A stretch of DNA of 32,000 nt. Origin: Geotalea uraniireducens Rf4 (GTDB taxonomy: Bacteria; Desulfobacterota; Desulfuromonadia; Geobacterales; Geobacteraceae). Below are positions 15,853 through 28,127 of this stretch, piece by piece. The stretch covers positions 1,140,001 through 1,172,000 of the forward strand of contig NC_009483.1 of the NCBI RefSeq assembly GCF_000016745.1. The letters run 5' to 3'. Numbering within the stretch: position 1 is the stretch's first letter; every line of letters starts with the position of its first letter. Made by a program: the position numbers and the translations under genes. The notes under the pieces were generated by a model that did no database searches, had not been told where the DNA came from, and saw nothing but the letters and a program-made list of their open reading frames with translations.

Positions 15853-15985
15853 GTCGGCGGTCGGCGGTCGGCGGTCGGCAGTCGGCAGTCGGCAGTCGGC
15901 AGTCGGCGGTCGGCGGTCGGCGGTCGATGGTCGATGGTCGATGGTCGATGGTTGATGTTGGTTCCAACCGCCGACCGCCGACCGC
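15853..15985. repeat. tandem heptanucleotide array (15 units) with a short inverted tail
   Basis: 3x GTCGGCG, 4x GTCGGCA, 3x GTCGGCG, 4x GTCGATG and 1x GTTGATG span 15853..15957. A GTTGG-TT-CCAAC tip follows, then CGCCGAC CGCCGAC CGC (15969..15985), which is complementary to the GTCGGCG units. Confidence 0.9.
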
Positions 15986-18985: not shown

Positions 18986-18988
18986 TGC

Positions 18989-19142
18989 GAGGAAAGAGGA
19001 GCGAGGTTCTAGGAACGAGGAGTGAGGAACGAGGCCGAACAGGTTCTCCTCGAACCTCAAACCTCTAACCTCTAACCTCTAACCTCTAACCTCTAACCTC
19101 TAACCTCTAACCTCTAACCTCTAACCTCGTTCCTCTTTCCTG
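18989..19142. repeat. period-7 palindromic array (GAGGNNN arm / NNNCCTC arm with 9x TAACCTC)
   Basis: The left arm is GAGGAAA GAGGAGC GAGGTTC TAGGAAC GAGGAGT GAGGAAC GAGGCCG. A central hairpin pairs AGGTTC with GAACCT (19041..19057). The right arm is GAACCTC AAACCTC, 9x TAACCTC (19066..19128), GTTCCTC TTTCCTG. The outer 17 nt (18990..19006 versus 19125..19141) are complementary at 16 of 17 positions. Confidence 0.9.
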
Positions 19143-19149
19143 GAATCTT

Positions 19150-19332
19150 ATGCAGTCTGAAGATAAAAACCCCAAAAAACATCCCTGCCCGGATTGCACC
19201 TTCTGTCAGTGGTGCTCCGATGATCGTTGCCGCATGTGCCTCGGGCAGGAGGAGTGCGGCAGGCAAAAGCTTTCCTTGGCCGAGCAGATAGAGTTGTTTG
19301 AATCAATGCAACGGGGTCGGAAGGACCGCTGA
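19150..19332 (+). CDS. small cysteine-rich protein (60 aa), hypothetical
   Basis: MQSEDKNPKKHPCPDCTFCQWCSDDRCRMCLGQEECGRQK... has seven Cys in 24 residues (C-x2-C-x2-C-x2-C-x4-C-x2-C-x5-C). G+C-rich third positions resemble the neighbouring genes. The SD is weak (GGAA). Confidence 0.5.
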   Translation: MQSEDKNPKKHPCPDCTFCQWCSDDRCRMCLGQEECGRQKLSLAEQIELFESMQRGRKDR

Positions 19333-20418: not shown

Positions 20419-21231
20419 TCATTTCTTGCCGAGTTCCATGGAACGAGCGGTCGCGGCATCCACGCCGTTGATGACGGCGCTGCGGAACCCGTCCTTTTCC
20501 AGGGCGTGCATGCCGGCAATGGTTGTGCCTCCGGGGGAAGTCACCTTGTCGCGGAGCACGGCGGGGTGTTCACGGGTTTCGAGCAGGAGCCTGGCTGTGC
20601 CGAATACCGTTTGCGCGGCAAGGCCGGTGGCGATGTCGCGGGAAAGGCCGTTTTTGACCCCGGCATCGGAGAGCGCCTCGATAAAGGTGAGGACGTAGGC
20701 CGGGCCGCTGCCTGAAAGGCCGGTGACCGCATCCAGCAACTTTTCTTCCACTACCCAGGCCTTGCCCACCAGTTCGAAGATATGGCGGGTAAGGGAGATG
20801 TCGTCGCCGGTGGCGTGGGCGCCTTTGCTGATGGCGGAGGCGCCTTCCATCACCAGTGCCGGTGTATTGGGCATGACCCGCACAATCCGCGGTGTCCCCG
20901 ACAACATGGCCTCGATGGCGGTTGTAGTTATACCGGCCAGGATGGATATGATGGGCTTGTCGGGACTGATTGAGCCCTTTATGCCGTCCAGTACCTCGCT
21001 GCAGACCTGCGGCTTGACGGAGAGTATTATCACGTCACAGTCGGCTGCAACGGCATTGTTGTCATTGGAGACATTAACGCCGTAGCGCTCCCGGAGAAAT
21101 TCCCGACGCCCTGCTGCCGGCTCAGCCACCGCAAGTTCCTTTGCCGGCATGCCTCCTGCCAGGAGCCCCTTGATAAGGGCCTCTGCCATGTTACCTCCGC
21201 CAATGAAACCGATTTTCTTGTCCTTCAGCAT
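20419..21231 (-). CDS. proC: pyrroline-5-carboxylate reductase
   Basis: ORF 20419..21300. I prefer ATG 21231 (AAGGAG upstream; MLKDKKIGFIGGGNMAEA Rossmann start). The C-terminal VTSPGGTTIAG motif is present. Confidence 0.9.
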   Translation of the reverse strand: MLKDKKIGFIGGGNMAEALIKGLLAGGMPAKELAVAEPAAGRREFLRERYGVNVSNDNNAVAADCDVIILSVKPQVCSEVLDGIKGSISPDKPIISILAGITTTAIEAMLSGTPRIVRVMPNTPALVMEGASAISKGAHATGDDISLTRHIFELVGKAWVVEEKLLDAVTGLSGSGPAYVLTFIEALSDAGVKNGLSRDIATGLAAQTVFGTARLLLETREHPAVLRDKVTSPGGTTIAGMHALEKDGFRSAVINGVDAATARSMELGKK

Positions 21232-21483
21232 GGAGTATTCTCCTTTTTCCTCTGTTCTTGGGTTGTAACGCCATTTGATAGGTAATAAATCCGTGTTCAA
21301 AAGTCAATAAATTTGGATTAAGGCAAGATTCCCCACCGTTTTTTATTCCCTGCCGGTGCTTATTTTCTGTTGAAAAATGTAAAAACGGAATGCGCATATT
21401 TGCGAAAAATCAGCATTTTAATGTTTCTGCTGCGATGCGGTTTCGGTTGTTTATAAAAAATATTTTTGATGACAAAAAAAGGT

Positions 21484-21512
21484 TTGACATGCTAATTTAT
21501 ATATATTATAAA
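21484..21512 (+). promoter_or_regulatory. sigma70-type promoter for the polyamine regulator/operon
   Basis: TTGACA (21484..21489), a 17-nt spacer, then TATAAA (21507..21512), in an AT-rich intergenic region. The predicted start site is near 21519. Confidence 0.5.
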
Positions 21513-21541
21513 CCACTGCCTGCGAGTCGAAGTTAAACATA

Positions 21542-21664
21542 AAGTTTACAAATGCTAAACTTGGCGTTAGACAGAATGTTTAGAATCGCTAAACTTGTTA
21601 TTAGACAGAAAGTTTACTGTAGGTAAACTTTTCATAATACAAAATGTTTACGATTACTAAACTT
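21542..21664 (+). promoter_or_regulatory. array of four palindromic sites AAGTTTA-N7-TAAACTT spaced exactly 34 bp apart (candidate operators of the XRE-cupin regulator)
   Basis: Sites start at 21542, 21576, 21610 and 21644: AAGTTTAcaaatgcTAAACTT, ATGTTTAgaatcgcTAAACTT, AAGTTTActgtaggTAAACTT, ATGTTTAcgattacTAAACTT. The last ends 1 nt before SD GGGAGG (21665..21670) of the TTG-initiated regulator gene. Confidence 0.55.
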
Positions 21665-21675
21665 GGGAGGTTTGC

Positions 21676-22221
21676 TTGAAGATTGGCGAGAGGTTAAAGC
21701 GGCTCAGAATGATCAACTCCCTGACCCAGGAAGAGTTGGCCAGCCGCGCTGACCTTACCAAGGGTTACATTTCCCAGCTGGAAAATGATGCTACCTCGCC
21801 TTCTATTGCAACGCTGAAGGACATCATCGATGTCTTCGGCGTCAGCATGCAGGAGTTCTTCAGCGAAGTTACCGACGAGGATATCGTTTTCGGCAAGGAT
21901 GCACGGGTTCAGGCCACTGACGACGACGACAAGATCAAGGTCGAACTGCTGGTGCCCGGTGCCCAGAATCGGGAAATGGACCCGGTTCTCGTCACCCTCG
22001 ACCCCGGCGAGGAGATGGATGAGCAGCCTTTTCACGAGGGGGAGGAGTTCGGTTACGTGCTTCTCGGCAAGGTACAGTTGAAGCTGGACGACAAGCTTTA
22101 CACCGTCAAGAAGGACGAGTGCTTCTATTTTACCTCCGACAAGCGGCACACGGTGAAGAACGCCGGCAAGACCCCGGCGAAGATTTTATGGGTGGTGACG
22201 CCACCCACGTTTTATTATTGA
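21676..22221 (+). CDS. XRE-family HTH + cupin-domain transcriptional regulator (PuuR-like architecture)
   Basis: 181 aa with a TTG start after GGGAGG. The N-terminal HTH_3 is LKRLRMINSLTQEELASRADLTKGYISQLEN. The C-terminal cupin includes HEGEEFGYVLLGKV...FYFTSDKRHTVKN. Confidence 0.85.
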   Translation: MKIGERLKRLRMINSLTQEELASRADLTKGYISQLENDATSPSIATLKDIIDVFGVSMQEFFSEVTDEDIVFGKDARVQATDDDDKIKVELLVPGAQNREMDPVLVTLDPGEEMDEQPFHEGEEFGYVLLGKVQLKLDDKLYTVKKDECFYFTSDKRHTVKNAGKTPAKILWVVTPPTFYY

Positions 22222-22223
22222 TC

Positions 22224-22304
22224 GTGCTGCGTGCTGCGTTCAGCGTGCTGCGCAATGATGGTTCCGCTGCGCGGAACAAAAGTACGCTGAACGCTGAACG
22301 CACA
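22224..22304. repeat. period-7 hairpin array (GTGCTGC/GTTCAGC arm versus ACGCTGA arm)
   Basis: GTGCTGC GTGCTGC GTTCAGC GTGCTGC spans 22224..22251. An inner hairpin is GTTCCGC-tgc-GCGGAAC (22261..22277). ACGCTGA ACGCTGA ACGCACA spans 22284..22304. TGCGTTCAGCGT (22235..22246) is perfectly complementary to 22291..22302. Confidence 0.9.
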
Positions 22305-22320
22305 AGAAGGAGGCATATAT

Positions 22321-23517
22321 ATGAGCAAAGTATTGATAATCGGAGCAGGTGGAGTCGGCGGGGTCGTCACGCACAAGTGCGCCCAGGCGAAAGACGTAAT
22401 CACCGGTATCACCCTGGCTTCCCGTACGGAGTCGAAATGCAAGGCCATAGCGGCCCAGATCGACTTTCCCGTGAAGACCGCCCAGGTCAATGCCGACAAT
22501 GTGCCCGAGCTGGCGGAGCTCATCAGGAAGGAGCAGCCAAAGCTTGTTATCAACGTTGCCCTCCCGTATCAAGACCTGACCATTATGGATGCCTGTCTGG
22601 CAACGGGGGTCGATTACCTGGACACAGCCAACTACGAGCCGCTCGACACTGCAAAATTCGAGTACAGCTGGCAATGGGCGTACCAGGACCGGTTTCGCGA
22701 AAAGGGGCTCATGGCGCTTCTGGGAAGCGGTTTCGATCCGGGGGTGACAAACGTCTATACGGCCCTGGCTGCGAAAAAATACCTGGACGAGGTGCAGGAG
22801 ATCGACATCATCGATGCCAACGCCGGCAGCCACGGCCAGCCTTTTGCCACCAATTTCAATCCGGAGATCAACATTCGCGAGGTCACCGCAACCTGCCGCC
22901 ACTGGGAAAACGGCCAGTTCGTTGAGTCGCCACCGCTCTCCACCAAGCATGTCTTCGATTTCCCCGAGGGGATCGGCCCGATGAACATCTACCGTCTCTA
23001 CCACGAAGAGATGGAGTCGCTGGTCAAGCACATACCGACCATCAAGAAGGCCCAGTTCTGGATGACCTTCTCCGACAACTACCTGAAGCACCTGGAGGTG
23101 CTGCAGAACGTGGGTATGACCCGCATCGACGAGGTGGAGTTCAACGGTCAGAAAATCGTGCCGATCCAGTTCCTGAAAGCCCTGCTCCCCGATCCCGGCT
23201 CCCTGGGGCCGCTCACCAAGGGGAAGACCTGCATCGGTGTCATCGCACGCGGCATCAAGGACGGGAAGCGCAAGCAGGTCTACATCTACAACATCTGCGA
23301 CCACGAGGCGTGCTACCGGGAAGTCAAGTCCCAGGCCATCAGCTACACCACCGGCGTGCCGGCTGTGGTTGGGGCGATCATGATGCTCACCGGTAAATGG
23401 CACAAACCGGGTGTCTGGAATATGGAGCAGTTCGATCCGGAGCTGTTCCTGGAAACGCTCGGCCCCATGGGGCTGCCGACGGTTGTCGTCGACGGGGGCG
23501 AGTGGCCGGAACTGTAA
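22321..23517 (+). CDS. carboxy(nor)spermidine dehydrogenase (saccharopine dehydrogenase family)
   Basis: 398 aa. MSKVLIIGAGGVGGVVTHKCAQ Rossmann start, SD AAGGAGG, length and sequence typical of CASDH/CANSDH, and adjacency to nspC. Confidence 0.9.
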   Translation: MSKVLIIGAGGVGGVVTHKCAQAKDVITGITLASRTESKCKAIAAQIDFPVKTAQVNADNVPELAELIRKEQPKLVINVALPYQDLTIMDACLATGVDYLDTANYEPLDTAKFEYSWQWAYQDRFREKGLMALLGSGFDPGVTNVYTALAAKKYLDEVQEIDIIDANAGSHGQPFATNFNPEINIREVTATCRHWENGQFVESPPLSTKHVFDFPEGIGPMNIYRLYHEEMESLVKHIPTIKKAQFWMTFSDNYLKHLEVLQNVGMTRIDEVEFNGQKIVPIQFLKALLPDPGSLGPLTKGKTCIGVIARGIKDGKRKQVYIYNICDHEACYREVKSQAISYTTGVPAVVGAIMMLTGKWHKPGVWNMEQFDPELFLETLGPMGLPTVVVDGGEWPEL

Positions 23518-23609: not shown

Positions 23610-24764
23610 TTGACCGGAATCGATATCGACAAAATCCTTGAGCTCGCCCCATCCCCTGCCTACGTGGTGGACCTGGGACGCCTCCGCCACAATCTCGCCA
23701 TCCTGGACGAAGTCCAAAAGCGGAGCGGCGCCAAGATCCTGCTTGCCCTCAAGGCGTTCTCCATGTGGAGCGTTTTCCCCATCATCAGGGAGACCCTGCA
23801 AGGGGTCTGCGCCAGCAGCCCATGGGAGGCACGCCTCGGCCGGGAGGAGTTCGGCCGCGAGGTGCACAGCTTTTCCGCCGCCTTCAAGGAGAGCGACGTG
23901 GTTGATCTCCTCGAAACCTCGAACCATCTCGTCTTCAACTCCTTCGCCCAATTGGAACGCTTCCGTCCGCTCTGGGAAAAAGAGCATGGGCGGGTGTCGG
24001 TGGGCTTAAGGGTCAACCCGGAGCATGCGGAAGGGCACACCGCCATCTACGACCCCTGCGCGCCGAAATCGCGCCTCGGCATCCGCCGCGCCGAATTCGA
24101 AGGCCGTTCCCTGAGCGGAGTCGACGGGCTTCACTTCCACACCCTCTGCGAGCAGCTCTTCGAACCACTGGAGCGGACGGCCCGTGTCTTCGAAGAGAAA
24201 TTCGGTGAATTCCTCCACGGCATGCGGTGGCTGAACTTGGGGGGCGGGCATCACATCACCCGCGAAGGTTACGACATCGACGCCCTCGTGGATCTGGTGC
24301 GCTATTTCCGCGAGAAGTATGACATCGAGGTGTATCTGGAGCCGGGTGAGGCCATCGCCATCGGCACCGGCATTCTCGTCGCCGAGGTCCTTGACGTAGT
24401 GCACAACGAGATGGAGATCGCCATTCTGGATGTCTCGGCCACCTGCCACATGCCCGACATACTGGAGATGCCATATCGGCCGGAAATCGAGGGCGGTTTC
24501 GCTGCCGGCGAGAAGGCCTGCACCTACCGCCTCGGCGGCCCTTCGTGCCTGGCGGGGGACGTCATCGGCGACTGGTCTTTCGAGGCGCCGCTGAAGGCCG
24601 GTGACCGGCTGGCCTTTCTCGACATGGCACACTACACCATGGTCAAGACCACGACCTTCAACGGCATCCATCACCCCCACATCTGCACCTTCGAACCGCA
24701 AACGGGGGAGCTGCGAATTGTCCGAAGTTTTACCTACGAGGATTTCAGGAACCGTTTGTCATAG
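23610..24764 (+). CDS. nspC: carboxy(nor)spermidine decarboxylase
   Basis: 384 aa with a TTG start. PSPAYVVDL...SGAKILLALKAFSMWSVFP and a PLP-dependent decarboxylase-fold sequence typical of NspC/CASDC. Confidence 0.9.
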   Translation: MTGIDIDKILELAPSPAYVVDLGRLRHNLAILDEVQKRSGAKILLALKAFSMWSVFPIIRETLQGVCASSPWEARLGREEFGREVHSFSAAFKESDVVDLLETSNHLVFNSFAQLERFRPLWEKEHGRVSVGLRVNPEHAEGHTAIYDPCAPKSRLGIRRAEFEGRSLSGVDGLHFHTLCEQLFEPLERTARVFEEKFGEFLHGMRWLNLGGGHHITREGYDIDALVDLVRYFREKYDIEVYLEPGEAIAIGTGILVAEVLDVVHNEMEIAILDVSATCHMPDILEMPYRPEIEGGFAAGEKACTYRLGGPSCLAGDVIGDWSFEAPLKAGDRLAFLDMAHYTMVKTTTFNGIHHPHICTFEPQTGELRIVRSFTYEDFRNRLS

Positions 24765-24876: not shown

Positions 24877-26784
24877 ATGGAACGCTGGTCAATCAACGAC
24901 TCCGCAAAGATTTACAACCTCAACAACTGGGGCGCCGATCTTTTTTCTATCAACAAAAAAGGGAACGTTTGCGTCCACCCTTCGTCCAATTCGAAGCACT
25001 CCATCGACCTTCGGGCTCTGGTTGACGATCTGATCAAGCGGAAGATCAAGCCCCCCATTCTCCTCCGCTTCATGGACGTTCTGCAGGGGCGGATCGCCTC
25101 CATCAATCGCGTTTTCAAGAATGCCATCCAGGAGAACAATTACCCTGCCAAATACCAGACGTTCTACCCCATCAAGGTGAACCAGCAACGGCAGGTGGTG
25201 GAGGCGATCGCCAACTTCGGCAAGCGCTACAACATCGGCCTGGAGGTCGGTTCCAAGCCGGAACTGGTGGCCGGGATTTCCTTCGCAACCGGGAACAACC
25301 TCCCCATCATCTGTAACGGCTACAAGGATACCGAATACATCGAGATGGTCCTTTCCGCCACCAAGATCGGCTACGACATAACCCTTGTCGTCGAGAAGCT
25401 GTTCGAGCTGGAAAAGATCATCGAACTGGTCAAGAAGACGGGTGTTCAGCCGAAACTGGGGATCCGGGTGAAGCTCTCTTCCAAGGGGATCGGGAAATGG
25501 GCCACTTCCGGTGGCGAAGACGCCAAGTTCGGCCTGCGGATGTCGGAAATCATCGCCGCCATCGAGATGCTGGAAAAGCACGATCTCATCAAATGCGTGA
25601 AGCTACTCCATTTTCATATCGGCAGCCAGATCACGAAAATCGACAAGATCAAGACCGCCCTTATCGAAGGGGCCCGGATCTACGCCGAGATGAGGAAACT
25701 GGGGGTCGGCATCGAATATCTGGATATCGGCGGCGGCCTGGGGGTCGATTACGACGGCTCCAAATCCAGCAATTTCTCCAGCGTCAACTATTCCATCGAA
25801 GAATACGCCAACGACGTCATCTATCAGATCAAGAACATCTGTGAAGACGCCGGGGTGGAGTGCCCCAACATCATCTCCGAATCGGGGCGGGCCACGGTCG
25901 CCCACTACTCGGTGCTGGTGACCAACGTGCTCAACACCAACACACAGAACATCATGCCCGATTTCGAGGCGACCCTGAACGAGGCGGAAAAACTGGCCCC
26001 CACCGTCAAGAAGTTGGAGGACATCTACAAAAGCATCGACCGCTATTCGCTGCGGGAGGACTATCACGACACCCTCCAGCTGATTCAAGAAGCGGTCAGC
26101 CTCTTCAACCTGGGCTATCTGACGCTGAACGACCGGGCCATGGCCGAATGGCTCTACGGGAAGATCATTCGCAAGATCAACAGCATCGTGGAGAAGATCA
26201 AGCCGATTCCCGAAGAGTTGCAGAACTTTCAACTCTCGTTGCGGCAGACCTACTTTGCCAACTTTTCGCTGTTCCAGTCGGTTCCCGACTCCTGGGCCAT
26301 TGACCAGCTCTTCCCCATCGTCCCGATCCAGCGCCTGAACCAGAAGCCGGACGTGATCGCCTCCATCGCCGACATCACCTGCGATTCCGACGGAGAGATC
26401 ACCAGTTTCGTGGGGGAAAACGGCAGGACCAAATTCCTCCCGCTGCACAAGATCCGCAAAGACGAGGCTTACTACATCGGTTTCTTCCTGATCGGCGCTT
26501 ACCAGGAGATACTCGGTGACATGCACAACCTGTTCGGAGACACCAACGCCGTGCACATCACCTTCAACAAGAAGACCGGCTACATAATCGATACGGTCAT
26601 CAACGGCGACGCCACCTGGGAAAGCCTGAAATACGTCCAGTACAAGGGGCCGGAGATTCTGAAGCGGGTCCGCGACAACCTGGAAAAGGATGTGGCGCTA
26701 CGCAAGATCTCCATCGAAGAGAGCAGCCATTTCCTGGAGCTTTTGGACAGAACGCTATTGGGGTACACCTATCTGGGAGAGTGA
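24877..26784 (+). CDS. speA: biosynthetic arginine decarboxylase
   Basis: 635 aa. The N-terminus MERWSINDSAKIYNLNNWG..., the FYPIKVNQQ PLP-lysine motif and the overall length are typical of SpeA. Confidence 0.95.
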   Translation: MERWSINDSAKIYNLNNWGADLFSINKKGNVCVHPSSNSKHSIDLRALVDDLIKRKIKPPILLRFMDVLQGRIASINRVFKNAIQENNYPAKYQTFYPIKVNQQRQVVEAIANFGKRYNIGLEVGSKPELVAGISFATGNNLPIICNGYKDTEYIEMVLSATKIGYDITLVVEKLFELEKIIELVKKTGVQPKLGIRVKLSSKGIGKWATSGGEDAKFGLRMSEIIAAIEMLEKHDLIKCVKLLHFHIGSQITKIDKIKTALIEGARIYAEMRKLGVGIEYLDIGGGLGVDYDGSKSSNFSSVNYSIEEYANDVIYQIKNICEDAGVECPNIISESGRATVAHYSVLVTNVLNTNTQNIMPDFEATLNEAEKLAPTVKKLEDIYKSIDRYSLREDYHDTLQLIQEAVSLFNLGYLTLNDRAMAEWLYGKIIRKINSIVEKIKPIPEELQNFQLSLRQTYFANFSLFQSVPDSWAIDQLFPIVPIQRLNQKPDVIASIADITCDSDGEITSFVGENGRTKFLPLHKIRKDEAYYIGFFLIGAYQEILGDMHNLFGDTNAVHITFNKKTGYIIDTVINGDATWESLKYVQYKGPEILKRVRDNLEKDVALRKISIEESSHFLELLDRTLLGYTYLGE

Positions 26785-26791
26785 AAAGACT

Positions 26792-26875
26792 GTTCAACGT
26801 TCGAGGTTCGAGGTTCGACGTTGAAAACCACGTAGAACATAGAACGTCGAACATCGAACATCGAACATCGAACAT
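26792..26875. repeat. period-7 hairpin array (GTTCGAG arm versus CGAACAT arm)
   Basis: GTTCAAC GTTCGAG GTTCGAG GTTCGAC spans 26792..26819. AGAACAT AGAACGT then 4x CGAACAT span 26834..26875. GTTCGACGTT (26813..26822) is perfectly complementary to AACGTCGAAC (26843..26852), and flanking units match at 6 of 7 positions. Confidence 0.9.
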
Positions 26876-26880
26876 AAAAA

Positions 26881-26912
26881 AAGCGCGGACATTCATTGCC
26901 CGCGCTTTTTTT
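26881..26912 (+). terminator. rho-independent terminator after speA
   Basis: AAGCGCGG - 11-nt loop - CCGCGCTT followed by a T-run reaching 26912, with an A-tract upstream. It abuts the first ATG of the MFS ORF. Confidence 0.7.
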
Positions 26913-28127
26913 ATGGGTAAACTTGCGGAATCACGGGTTGAAACGGAGAAGCTATTGTTCAGCGGTATTACAGGCAATGTGTTGATACTGGGGATGGTAA
27001 GCTTTCTTACCGATGTTTCCAGCGAAATGATCTACCCGCTCCTGCCGCTCTTCCTGACCACGGTCCTCGGCGCCGGCCCCGCCTTTCTCGGCGTGATCGA
27101 GGGGGTGGCCGAATCGACCGCTTCGCTGTTGAAACTTTTTTCCGGGATAGCCTCCGACAGGGTAAGTGACCGCCAGAAGCTGGTGCTTTTCGGTTATACC
27201 GTTTCCGCATGTGCCCGGCCGCTCATAGCCCTGGCCGCGACACCTGCTTTCGTGCTGTTCGTCCGTTTCTTCGACCGGGTGGGGAAGGGGATACGGACCT
27301 CGCCGCGCGATGCCCTGATTGCCGATTCGGTCGACAGTTCCCTGCGGGGCAAGGCATTTGGTTTTCACCGCTCCATGGACCATGCGGGGGCCATTGTCGG
27401 TCCGCTGATTGCCACGCTCCTCCTCACTTTTTTCATCAAGGACATCCGGACCATTTTCTGGCTTGCCGCAATTCCCGGCTTGCTGGCCGTGTTGCTGATA
27501 ATTCTACGGGTTAGGGATGTTTCGCGGAAAAGAGGAGAAAACGGCGCTTTCATGCGCATGGTTCCCCGTGGAAAACTGAGAGCCTATCTCATTATTCTCT
27601 TTCTCTTCACCCTCGGCAATTCATCGGATGCGTTCCTTCTGCTCAAAGCGGGGCAACTCGGCGTTACTCCGGCCCGGATCCCGCTTCTCTGGATGTTCTT
27701 TCATCTGGTCAAAATGTTTTCCTCAATGCCTTTCGGCGCACTTTCAGACAGGATCGGCAGGCGCAGTATCATTGTCAGCGGCTGGTGCGTCTATGCGCTG
27801 GCGTACGCCGGTTTTTCCCTGGCTGCGACCGAGCTGCATGTCTGGCTTCTCTTCGCTTTCTACGGGCTGTTTTACGGGTTGACCGAAGGGGTGGAAAAAG
27901 CCTTGCTGGTCGATATCGCAGATCCCGGCGAGCGGGGCGGAGCGTTCGGCTGGTACAATTTTGCCATCGGGGCCGGCGCACTTCCCGCCAGTCTGATCTT
28001 CGGCATTATCTGGCAAAAAGCCGGATCGCAGGCAGCCTTTGCCTTTGGCGCTTTCCTTGCTATATTGGCCGCAATTTTATTGGCGTTCCTGATAAATACT
28101 AAAGAAAACCCTGGCAAACGCCGATAA
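26913..28127 (+). CDS. MFS transporter
   Basis: Polytopic, with MFS loop motifs (SDRVSDRQKL, GKGIRTSPRDALIAD, SDRIGRRS). The ORF-track start 26781 reads through the repeat and terminator and is rejected. ATG 26913 touches the terminator T-run, so TTG 26955 (GGAG 6 nt upstream) is an equally plausible start. Confidence 0.8.
   Translation: MGKLAESRVETEKLLFSGITGNVLILGMVSFLTDVSSEMIYPLLPLFLTTVLGAGPAFLGVIEGVAESTASLLKLFSGIASDRVSDRQKLVLFGYTVSACARPLIALAATPAFVLFVRFFDRVGKGIRTSPRDALIADSVDSSLRGKAFGFHRSMDHAGAIVGPLIATLLLTFFIKDIRTIFWLAAIPGLLAVLLIILRVRDVSRKRGENGAFMRMVPRGKLRAYLIILFLFTLGNSSDAFLLLKAGQLGVTPARIPLLWMFFHLVKMFSSMPFGALSDRIGRRSIIVSGWCVYALAYAGFSLAATELHVWLLFAFYGLFYGLTEGVEKALLVDIADPGERGGAFGWYNFAIGAGALPASLIFGIIWQKAGSQAAFAFGAFLAILAAILLAFLINTKENPGKRR

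Follow-up and report, generated by a model that had tools for sequence, protein, structure and literature searches.

Four palindromes, repeated at an exact 34-bp period, stand immediately upstream of a gene for an XRE-cupin regulator, at the head of a polyamine operon, in a 32,000-nucleotide stretch of Geotalea uraniireducens Rf4 DNA (contig NC_009483.1, positions 1,140,001 to 1,172,000 of the forward strand; hereafter the window, in whose numbering positions are given). Such an array raises the question of what reads it, that is, a protein on duplex DNA or the folded leader RNA, and of what holds its period so constant. Comparison with orthologous loci in the Desulfuromonadales and with more distant relatives in the Clostridia argues that the palindromes are operators, through several of which the adjacent PuuR-family protein probably represses its own operon.

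The palindromic array

The palindromes, each of the form A(A/T)GTTTA-N7-TAAACTT, begin at 21542, 21576, 21610 and 21644. We call them O1 (21542-21562, AAGTTTA-caaatgc-TAAACTT), O2 (21576-21596, ATGTTTA-gaatcgc-TAAACTT), O3 (21610-21630, AAGTTTA-ctgtagg-TAAACTT) and O4 (21644-21664, ATGTTTA-cgattac-TAAACTT), none with an assigned strand; in a weight matrix built from orthologous sites they score 31.5, 28.0, 20.3 and 27.9 bits, respectively, O3 being the poorest match of the four, with the conserved C that precedes TAAAC replaced by G. Tandem Repeats Finder reports a single array at 21533-21665 (period 34, 3.9 copies, 72% matches, score 119). With up to two mismatches allowed, the pattern AGTTTA-N7-TAAACT matches four times in the 32 kb, each time inside the array, where 0.49 matches are expected, and none of 100 shuffled sequences attained four; the weight matrix, run over the whole window at a low threshold of 10 bits, found O1-O4 only. 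Units 1 and 2 both end in TTAGACAGA (21567-21575 and 21601-21609), and O4 abuts the Shine-Dalgarno sequence GGGAGG (21665-21670), which is followed by a TTG start codon at 21676-21678 (together 21665..21678, + strand). The preliminary description of this DNA had claimed four palindromes with this exact period, a tail common to units 1 and 2 and a last palindrome lying at the Shine-Dalgarno sequence; all three are plain in the sequence, and the first also in the repeat and pattern scans.

Conservation in the Desulfuromonadales

In a profile-guided scan that took one genome from each species we found 80 orthologous loci, their regulators 72-93% identical, in which the order regulator-dehydrogenase-decarboxylase-speA held wherever the contig was long enough. 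The palindromes recur 5' of the regulator gene, usually starting 98, 64 and 30 nt before its start codon. Information content over 152 distinct sites is 1.6-2.0 bits at each position of the core GTTTA...CTAAAC, and the centre favours A.T, the constrained core being GTTTA-N6-CTAAAC rather than the full 7+7 palindrome; among 117 distinct sites the right half, CTAAAC, is invariant, the left half drifts, and the outer A/T pair is complementary in about half. Our site scans covered approximately 12 kb around each orthologue, or approximately 895 kb in all, and within this no site with at most one mismatch was found elsewhere in the 80 loci. A hunt for further sites, which the preliminary description had proposed, thus came back empty for the window and for the DNA flanking these loci.

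The spacing is conserved as well. Of 75 neighbouring pairs, 66 are spaced by 34 bp, eight by 33 or 35 bp and one by 32 bp, and in Geomonas and its relatives, where the middle site has been lost, the outer two are separated by 66-69 bp; the linkers, meanwhile, have a mean pairwise identity of only 59% (61 distinct 15-nt sequences). If sites of at least 18 bits are counted as strong, 72 loci have at least one strong operator, and in 48 of these the last operator begins 29-31 nt ahead of the start codon; several loci have this distance lengthened by about one unit (approximately 35 nt).

Strong sites number three in 30 loci, two in 28, one in 13 and none in nine. Three is the usual number; four occur only in the window and in a metagenomic relative, L193, while a clade containing Geomobilimonas has three strong sites and, by eye, an apparent decayed fourth unit that the matrix scan rates at less than 10 bits. 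Of the earlier remark that both number and regularity are unusual, the regularity stands, as a spacing that is unusual and conserved; the number does not, four being a peculiarity of this lineage. L193 is a near-twin of the window, with a 100% identical regulator and the same four sites, and its array differs by six substitutions, every one of them within an N7 spacer, with arms and linkers unchanged (chance probability approximately 1e-4).

Could the array be a functionless, neutral tandem duplication produced by replication slippage? Copy number does differ among lineages, with zero to four sites of 18 bits or more in a locus, and units 1 and 2 of the window resemble a recent duplicate. Half-sites and spacing are nevertheless conserved across the order and into another phylum (see below) while spacers and linkers diverge, and this pattern of conservation effectively refutes a neutral origin.

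DNA operators or RNA hairpins

The units might instead act as RNA, as the preliminary description had suggested in the alternative: four A/U-rich hairpins in the leader of an upstream promoter, P1, that affect stability, termination or translation. The array would be transcribed if P1 were used, and the 171-nt leader folds better than its shuffles (-41.8 kcal/mol, z = -2.9); a better-than-shuffled fold is, however, expected of any array of repeated palindromes, and the individual hairpins are weak (-0.7, -3.2, -4.2 and -8.4 kcal/mol). The last hairpin excludes the Shine-Dalgarno sequence, in many clades the sole recognisable promoter comes after part of the array, and an Rfam scan of 21200-21800 matched no family, the best hit having an E-value of 1.9 and all scores falling far under the gathering thresholds.

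The pattern of substitution also speaks against RNA. The five core pairs almost never change over the 117 distinct sites, and the rare exceptions (GTATA, GATTA and GCTTA) are one-sided and pair-breaking and are never compensated. Outside the core, pairing is poorly kept: the flanking outer and inner positions pair in just 17-68% of the sites, and the next pair inward, a G/C opposite the invariant C, is complementary in only 51%. An invariant core without compensatory change is the signature of sequence-specific recognition of duplex DNA by a protein. We therefore consider a role as RNA exceedingly unlikely and treat the palindromes as predicted DNA operators. A leader peptide was also considered and rejected, the only open reading frames being unconvincing ones of 21-24 codons' worth of amino acids made of repeat sequence.

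Relatives in the Clostridia

A metagenome scan for two operators spaced by 33-35 bp returned at least 120 loci. Among the matches listed, about half are the Geobacteraceae locus, most of the others carry a regulator 43-54% identical to that of the window with an operator pair adjoining it, and a handful have no recognisable regulator. These Clostridial regulators, annotated merely as cupin-domain proteins of Clostridia or Clostridiales, have the helix-turn-helix and the cupin motif H-E-G-E-E-F-G in common with the window protein, and they precede a transporter of the PotA/PotB/PotC/PotD type, of the ATP-binding cassette (ABC) class. An independent sample of 12 profile-search matches, picked for protein similarity and long contigs regardless of operators, had a potABCD-type transporter after the regulator in every case and two or three operators in 10; neighbouring operators were 35 bp apart in 10 of its 11 pairs and 34 bp apart in the other.

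The layout of the Clostridial control region is its own. A single promoter, TTGACA-17-TGgTTTAAT, comes first, with a GTTTA half-site included in its -10 element; O1 lies 22-23 bp downstream and O2 35 bp further. That the spacing persists despite wholly different linkers and a different promoter arrangement suggests that it is the protein that constrains it. At two Clostridial loci, L144 (5921-7483) and L205 (from 9600), a gene with PG_binding_1 and NAGPA (phosphodiester glycosidase) domains comes after the pot-type transporter operon.

The same comparison bears on which protein is concerned. A different, global or unlinked transcription factor could bind the palindromes while the XRE-cupin protein acts on other targets, and our site scans were confined to the approximately 12 kb around each orthologue. 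The motif, however, tracks the regulator family over two phyla and two target operons, always directly 5' of the regulator gene, and no other sites occur in the 32-kb window or in the approximately 895 kb of related loci. Across orthologues the helix-turn-helix is nearly invariant, which parallels the invariant half-sites in these alignments, and in the clades whose left half has changed to GATTAG the DNA-binding domain has L35V/A39T/S41C. An unlinked factor is thus very unlikely. The preliminary description had proposed autorepression by the adjacent XRE-cupin protein; very probably the palindromes are indeed operators of this protein, which would then repress its own operon. Motif, gene and gene order go together in 80 loci, the approximately 895 kb contain the motif nowhere else, and its half-sites reappear beside Clostridial regulators that are only 43-54% identical.

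Predicted promoters interlaced with the operators

Upstream of the array, predicted promoter P1 (21484..21512, + strand) consists of TTGACA (21484-21489), a 17-nt spacer and TATAAA (21507-21512), exactly as previously described, with a predicted start site near 21519; a TTGAC(A/T/C)-17-TATA.. box lies 5' of all operators in 41 of the 80 loci having at least 200 nt of upstream sequence. Our consensus promoter scan omits P1, since it demands a T at the last -10 position. An A-tract just 5' of the -35 box (21474..21480, + strand) resembles an UP element and may function as one; many orthologous loci, too, have A-rich runs 5' of their homologous TTGACA. The distance from P1 to O1 differs by a few bases among loci. 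Between the two, the window has an extra half-site, TTAAAC (21533..21538, + strand), 5 nt 5' of the GTTTA of O1 and 22 bp 5' of its TAAAC, and the motif region that includes it, TTAAACA(T/G)AAAGTTTA, is kept in most Geobacteraceae loci.

A second TTGACA, approximately 73 nt before the start codon and between the first and second operators, is more widely conserved than P1. In 32 loci, the window included, its -10 element is the TAAACT half of the next operator, 16 nt downstream; in 33 loci that lack this operator an ordinary TAnnnT takes its place (TTGACA-16/17-TAnnnT), and this is usually the sole recognisable promoter. Both promoter classes, P1 and P2, are present in 26 loci. In the window the internal class is represented by two promoter-like units on the + strand: P2a (21568..21595), with TAGACA at 21568-21573, a 16-nt spacer and TAAACT at 21590-21595 in the right half of O2; and P2b (21602..21629), with TAGACA at 21602-21607, the same spacer length and TAAACT at 21624-21629 in the right half of O3. 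P2b is probably a duplicate of the P2a unit; the duplicated layout also occurs in L193, and the tail common to units 1 and 2 is derived. We read the TTAGACAGA tails as weakened, duplicated copies (TAGACA) of the -35 box that is conserved as TTGACA throughout the order. The argument for internal promoters comes from positional homology and not from the consensus scan: hexamer matches keep their position. As one palindrome half serves as the -10 element of the conserved TTGACA, the operators would flank and overlap one or more internal promoters. The earlier view that the array lies in a transcribed leader is thus right in that the array is downstream of P1, and incomplete in that its operators also flank or overlap the internal TTGACA/TAGACA units.

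This interlacing invites a dual switch, in which a dimer of the adjacent regulator on an operator abutting the -35 box stimulates the internal promoter, as lambda cI does from OR2 at PRM, while downstream operators repress at higher protein or ligand levels; the stimulating operator would be O1 in the relatives, and O1 and O2 in the window. It would fit operators that end 5-6 bp 5' of the conserved TTGACA in most loci, the coexistence of P1 and P2 classes in 26 loci and the graded site strengths inside arrays. Nothing supports an activation surface, however, and both Clostridial operators lie downstream of a single promoter, where only repression is plausible; every characterised XRE-cupin factor is, in excerpts from PMC7901475, an inhibitor. 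We consider such a switch unlikely.

The regulator and a model of repression

The regulator gene (21676..22221, + strand) encodes a PuuR-like protein of 181 amino acids, HTH_3 plus Cupin_2 by Pfam, with an N-terminal Cro/C1-type helix-turn-helix (Pfam HTH_3, residues 7-61, E 5e-14) and a C-terminal cupin (Pfam Cupin_2, residues 105-174, E 2e-19). An AlphaFold2 model from a 54-sequence alignment has a predicted local distance difference test (pLDDT) score of 82, with five helices at a pLDDT of approximately 90 in the helix-turn-helix domain; a model from a shallow alignment (pLDDT 57) was discarded in its favour. Foldseek matches the retained model best to 1Y9Q (E 2e-14), which is also the top Protein Data Bank match by sequence, and to HppE (E 4e-12), and the cupin of the XRE regulator 6B8W matches as well. 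None of these best sequence and fold matches is an XRE-cupin regulator solved with DNA, so the geometry of the operator cannot be deduced from structures.

The reading that we favour is multi-operator autorepression of the polyamine operon by this protein, and we consider it probable on the comparative evidence. Dimers of the PuuR-family protein encoded immediately downstream would bind O1-O4; the operon would be one for spermidine synthesis, made up of the regulator gene, a carboxyspermidine dehydrogenase-like gene, carboxyspermidine decarboxylase and arginine decarboxylase; and occupied operators would shut all of it, the regulator's own gene included. Repression could take three routes. At approximately +33, +67, +101 and +135 of P1, O1-O4 would act as roadblocks; O2 and O3 would cover the spacer and the -10 element (TAAACT) of the two internal TAGACA-16-TAAACT units; and O4, abutting the ribosome-binding site, would provide the third. 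The locus has the conserved palindromic motif in the intergenic region beside the protein's own gene that is expected of XRE-cupin regulation, and it has the two or more operators of the same type, at a spacing conserved between lineages, that are expected of a cooperative multi-operator array. The centre-to-centre distance would be dictated by the protein and not by the promoter, because 34 bp in the Desulfuromonadales and 35 bp in the Clostridia are kept while linkers and promoters differ; from this conserved spacing it follows that neighbouring dimers most likely interact, cooperatively or as a higher-order assembly.

Several observations weigh against this account. A near-invariant ACA lies four bases 5' of every Geobacteraceae operator without a mirror copy, an asymmetry for which a symmetric dimer does not account. 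The spacing itself is awkward for simple side-by-side contacts between dimers: at 10.5 bp per turn, 34-35 bp make 3.24-3.33 turns and place neighbours 86-120 degrees apart. The preliminary description had put them on nearly the same face of the helix, which at 34 bp, or 3.24 turns and approximately 86 degrees, they are not; neighbouring sites come into register only at a helical repeat of approximately 11.3-11.7 bp per turn. In vivo looping studies give approximately 11.1 bp per turn. Twisted DNA, wrapped DNA or dimers that do not touch at all are the alternatives here. As for the internal units, a consensus scan finds them no more often than chance (two found, 1.4 expected), and in the window they have the weaker TAGACA. 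The scan in which the Clostridial group came to light admitted only spacings of 33-35 bp, although the 12-locus sample was not. Finally, the characterised XRE-cupin regulators PuuR, PauR and PsdR are, according to excerpts from PMC7901475, released from DNA by their ligands, the opposite of the co-repressor logic considered next.

Ligand and regulatory logic

The cupin probably senses a polyamine or a near precursor, because the family is related to PuuR, a sensor of putrescine, whose acidic cupin motif it retains, and because the operons concerned make polyamines in one phylum and import them in the other; the polyamine link drawn in the preliminary description is stronger now that the Clostridial relatives are seen to precede potABCD. 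Both targets are supply functions, and end-product co-repression is therefore the most economical logic. Whether a polyamine in fact acts as co-repressor, giving end-product-dependent repression, we judge about an even chance.

A broader proposal can be offered only tentatively, and we think it less likely than not to hold in full: that these proteins are undescribed cross-phylum intracellular polyamine sensors which, with a polyamine as co-repressor and hence a polarity opposite to that of PuuR, repress synthesis or potABCD uptake through an assembly that fixes the 34-35 bp spacing, the number of units (up to four) tuning the strength or steepness of the response. If true, it would have synthesis repressed in the Desulfuromonadales and potABCD uptake repressed in gut and rumen Clostridia.

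The operon and other features of the window

The regulator gene is preceded by a divergent proC and followed, on the + strand, by a carboxy(nor)spermidine dehydrogenase-like gene with a saccharopine dehydrogenase fold (22321..23517; Pfam and NCBIfam), which comes after the regulator in every locus of sufficient length and whose top NCBIfam match, carboxynorspermidine synthase, falls under its cut-off. Next come nspC, for carboxynorspermidine/carboxyspermidine decarboxylase (23610..24764, + strand; TIGR01047, 497 bits against a 409-bit cut-off), and speA, for biosynthetic arginine decarboxylase (24877..26784, + strand; TIGR01273, 879 bits against 624), both in conserved gene order. A gene for a transporter of the major facilitator superfamily (Pfam MFS_1) follows speA on the same strand at approximately 26880-28127; as it has this position only in the Geotalea loci L013 and L020, we rejected it as a conserved member of the operon; it may have been gained in this lineage alone, perhaps to transport polyamines.

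The start codon of the regulator is TTG or GTG, never ATG, in the window and in all 80 Desulfuromonadales orthologues, which suggests deliberately weak translation initiation of a repressor; its Clostridial relatives start with ATG, TTG or GTG. At its 3' coding end, two terminator-like hairpins with T-rich tails (22161-22207, + strand) overlap the codons of the invariant C-terminus WVVTPPTFYY. They could reduce read-through into the biosynthetic genes or be coincidental; lying within conserved C-terminal coding sequence, they were not taken as functional. Two other loci, L005 and L011, have a GC-rich hairpin and T-run (for example CCCGCGGCCGGCGCGGG-ATTTTTTT) inserted between the last operator and the Shine-Dalgarno sequence, some 60 to 20 nt 5' of the start codon; this insertion resembles a terminator or attenuator and is absent from the window.

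The window also contains intergenic tandem arrays of heptanucleotides, at 15853-15957, 18988-19034 and 19048-19128, 22223-22252 and 22284-22301, and 26799-26875. Often two arrays, partly complementary, face each other, as do CGAGGAA (6.7 copies) and CCTCTAA (11.6 copies); within the polyamine operon, between the regulator and dehydrogenase genes, CGTGCTG/GTTCAGC (four copies) faces GCTGAAC (2.6 copies). Paired families of hepta- and octanucleotide repeats in G. metallireducens are described, in excerpts from PMC2700814, as putative global regulatory elements. Directly after the long CCTCTAA array lies a cysteine-rich open reading frame of 60 amino acids (CPDCTFCQWCSDDRCRMC..., 19150-19332, + strand), for which Pfam gives no match.

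Comparison with known systems

Beyond the catabolic regulators PuuR and PauR, intracellular polyamine sensing and its transcriptional control are poorly understood, and the present locus offers a concrete, testable candidate. It associates the operator GTTTA-N6-CTAAAC with the spermidine-synthesis operons of metal-reducing Desulfuromonadales and the polyamine importers of gut and rumen Clostridia, and for annotation it shows where the Geobacter polyamine operon has its control region and where its probable tandem promoters lie. A spacing conserved across phyla despite rebuilt promoters is, moreover, a natural system for the study of spacing-dependent repression, and one that could supply parts for polyamine biosensors. 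Full-text literature searches returned no account of the regulator, of its operator or of regulators of carboxyspermidine-pathway or Clostridial pot operons; what appears to be new comprises the pathways targeted, the sharp definition of the operator and the 34-35-bp cross-phylum spacing interlaced with promoter hexamers.

Among repressors with repeated operators, lambda cI (OR1-OR3) and MetJ (tandem met boxes) offer the nearest likeness, in that the repeated operator overlaps the promoter and its copy number differs by promoter or lineage. cI autoregulates, and MetJ uses the metabolite S-adenosylmethionine as co-repressor. Lambda sites are approximately 23-24 bp apart centre to centre and met boxes are contiguous 8-mers, whereas the 34-35 bp period here leaves approximately 15 bp of free linker between bound dimers; the fold of MetJ is also different. 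The two best structural matches, 1Y9Q, an HTH_3-cupin regulator of Vibrio cholerae, and HppE, an enzyme with helix-turn-helix and cupin domains, are approximately 20-23% identical to the regulator.

E. coli PuuR has the same two-domain architecture, and the regulator is 30% identical to it over the full length (E 2e-29). PuuR is the top NCBIfam match (NF007408) at 94.1 bits, under the 211-bit equivalog cut-off, and the regulator is best regarded as a relative of PuuR and not its orthologue. The cupin motif H-(E/Q)-G-E-E-x-G is common to PuuR, the Clostridial proteins and the window protein. Like PuuR and the P. aeruginosa protein PauR, the window family is linked to polyamines, has several sites per control region and is encoded in or next to the cluster that it would regulate; their targets, however, are putrescine catabolism, whereas here they are synthesis and, in the Clostridia, uptake. 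A 15-mer consensus for PuuR, said to go back to Nemoto and colleagues in 2012, finds three matches on the E. coli sequence, in the puuA-puuD spacer, at irregular intervals of 95 and 77 bp. The sites of the window family are palindromic and locked at 34-35 bp, in contrast to these irregular ones, and their ligand may act in the opposite direction, PuuR leaving DNA upon binding putrescine (as cited in excerpts from PMC7901475).

The Pseudomonas XRE-cupin family, including PsdR, ErfA and PA0535, is portrayed in excerpts from Trouillon et al. (2021; PMC7901475) as one of local, specialised inhibitors, which bind as dimers to palindromes beside their own genes and control the metabolism or uptake of small molecules. 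These factors mostly have one or two target regions, and the same excerpts describe no fixed-period arrays. What sets the window family apart from them is the combination of two to four identical operators, a spacing conserved across phyla and the intertwining of both with promoter hexamers.

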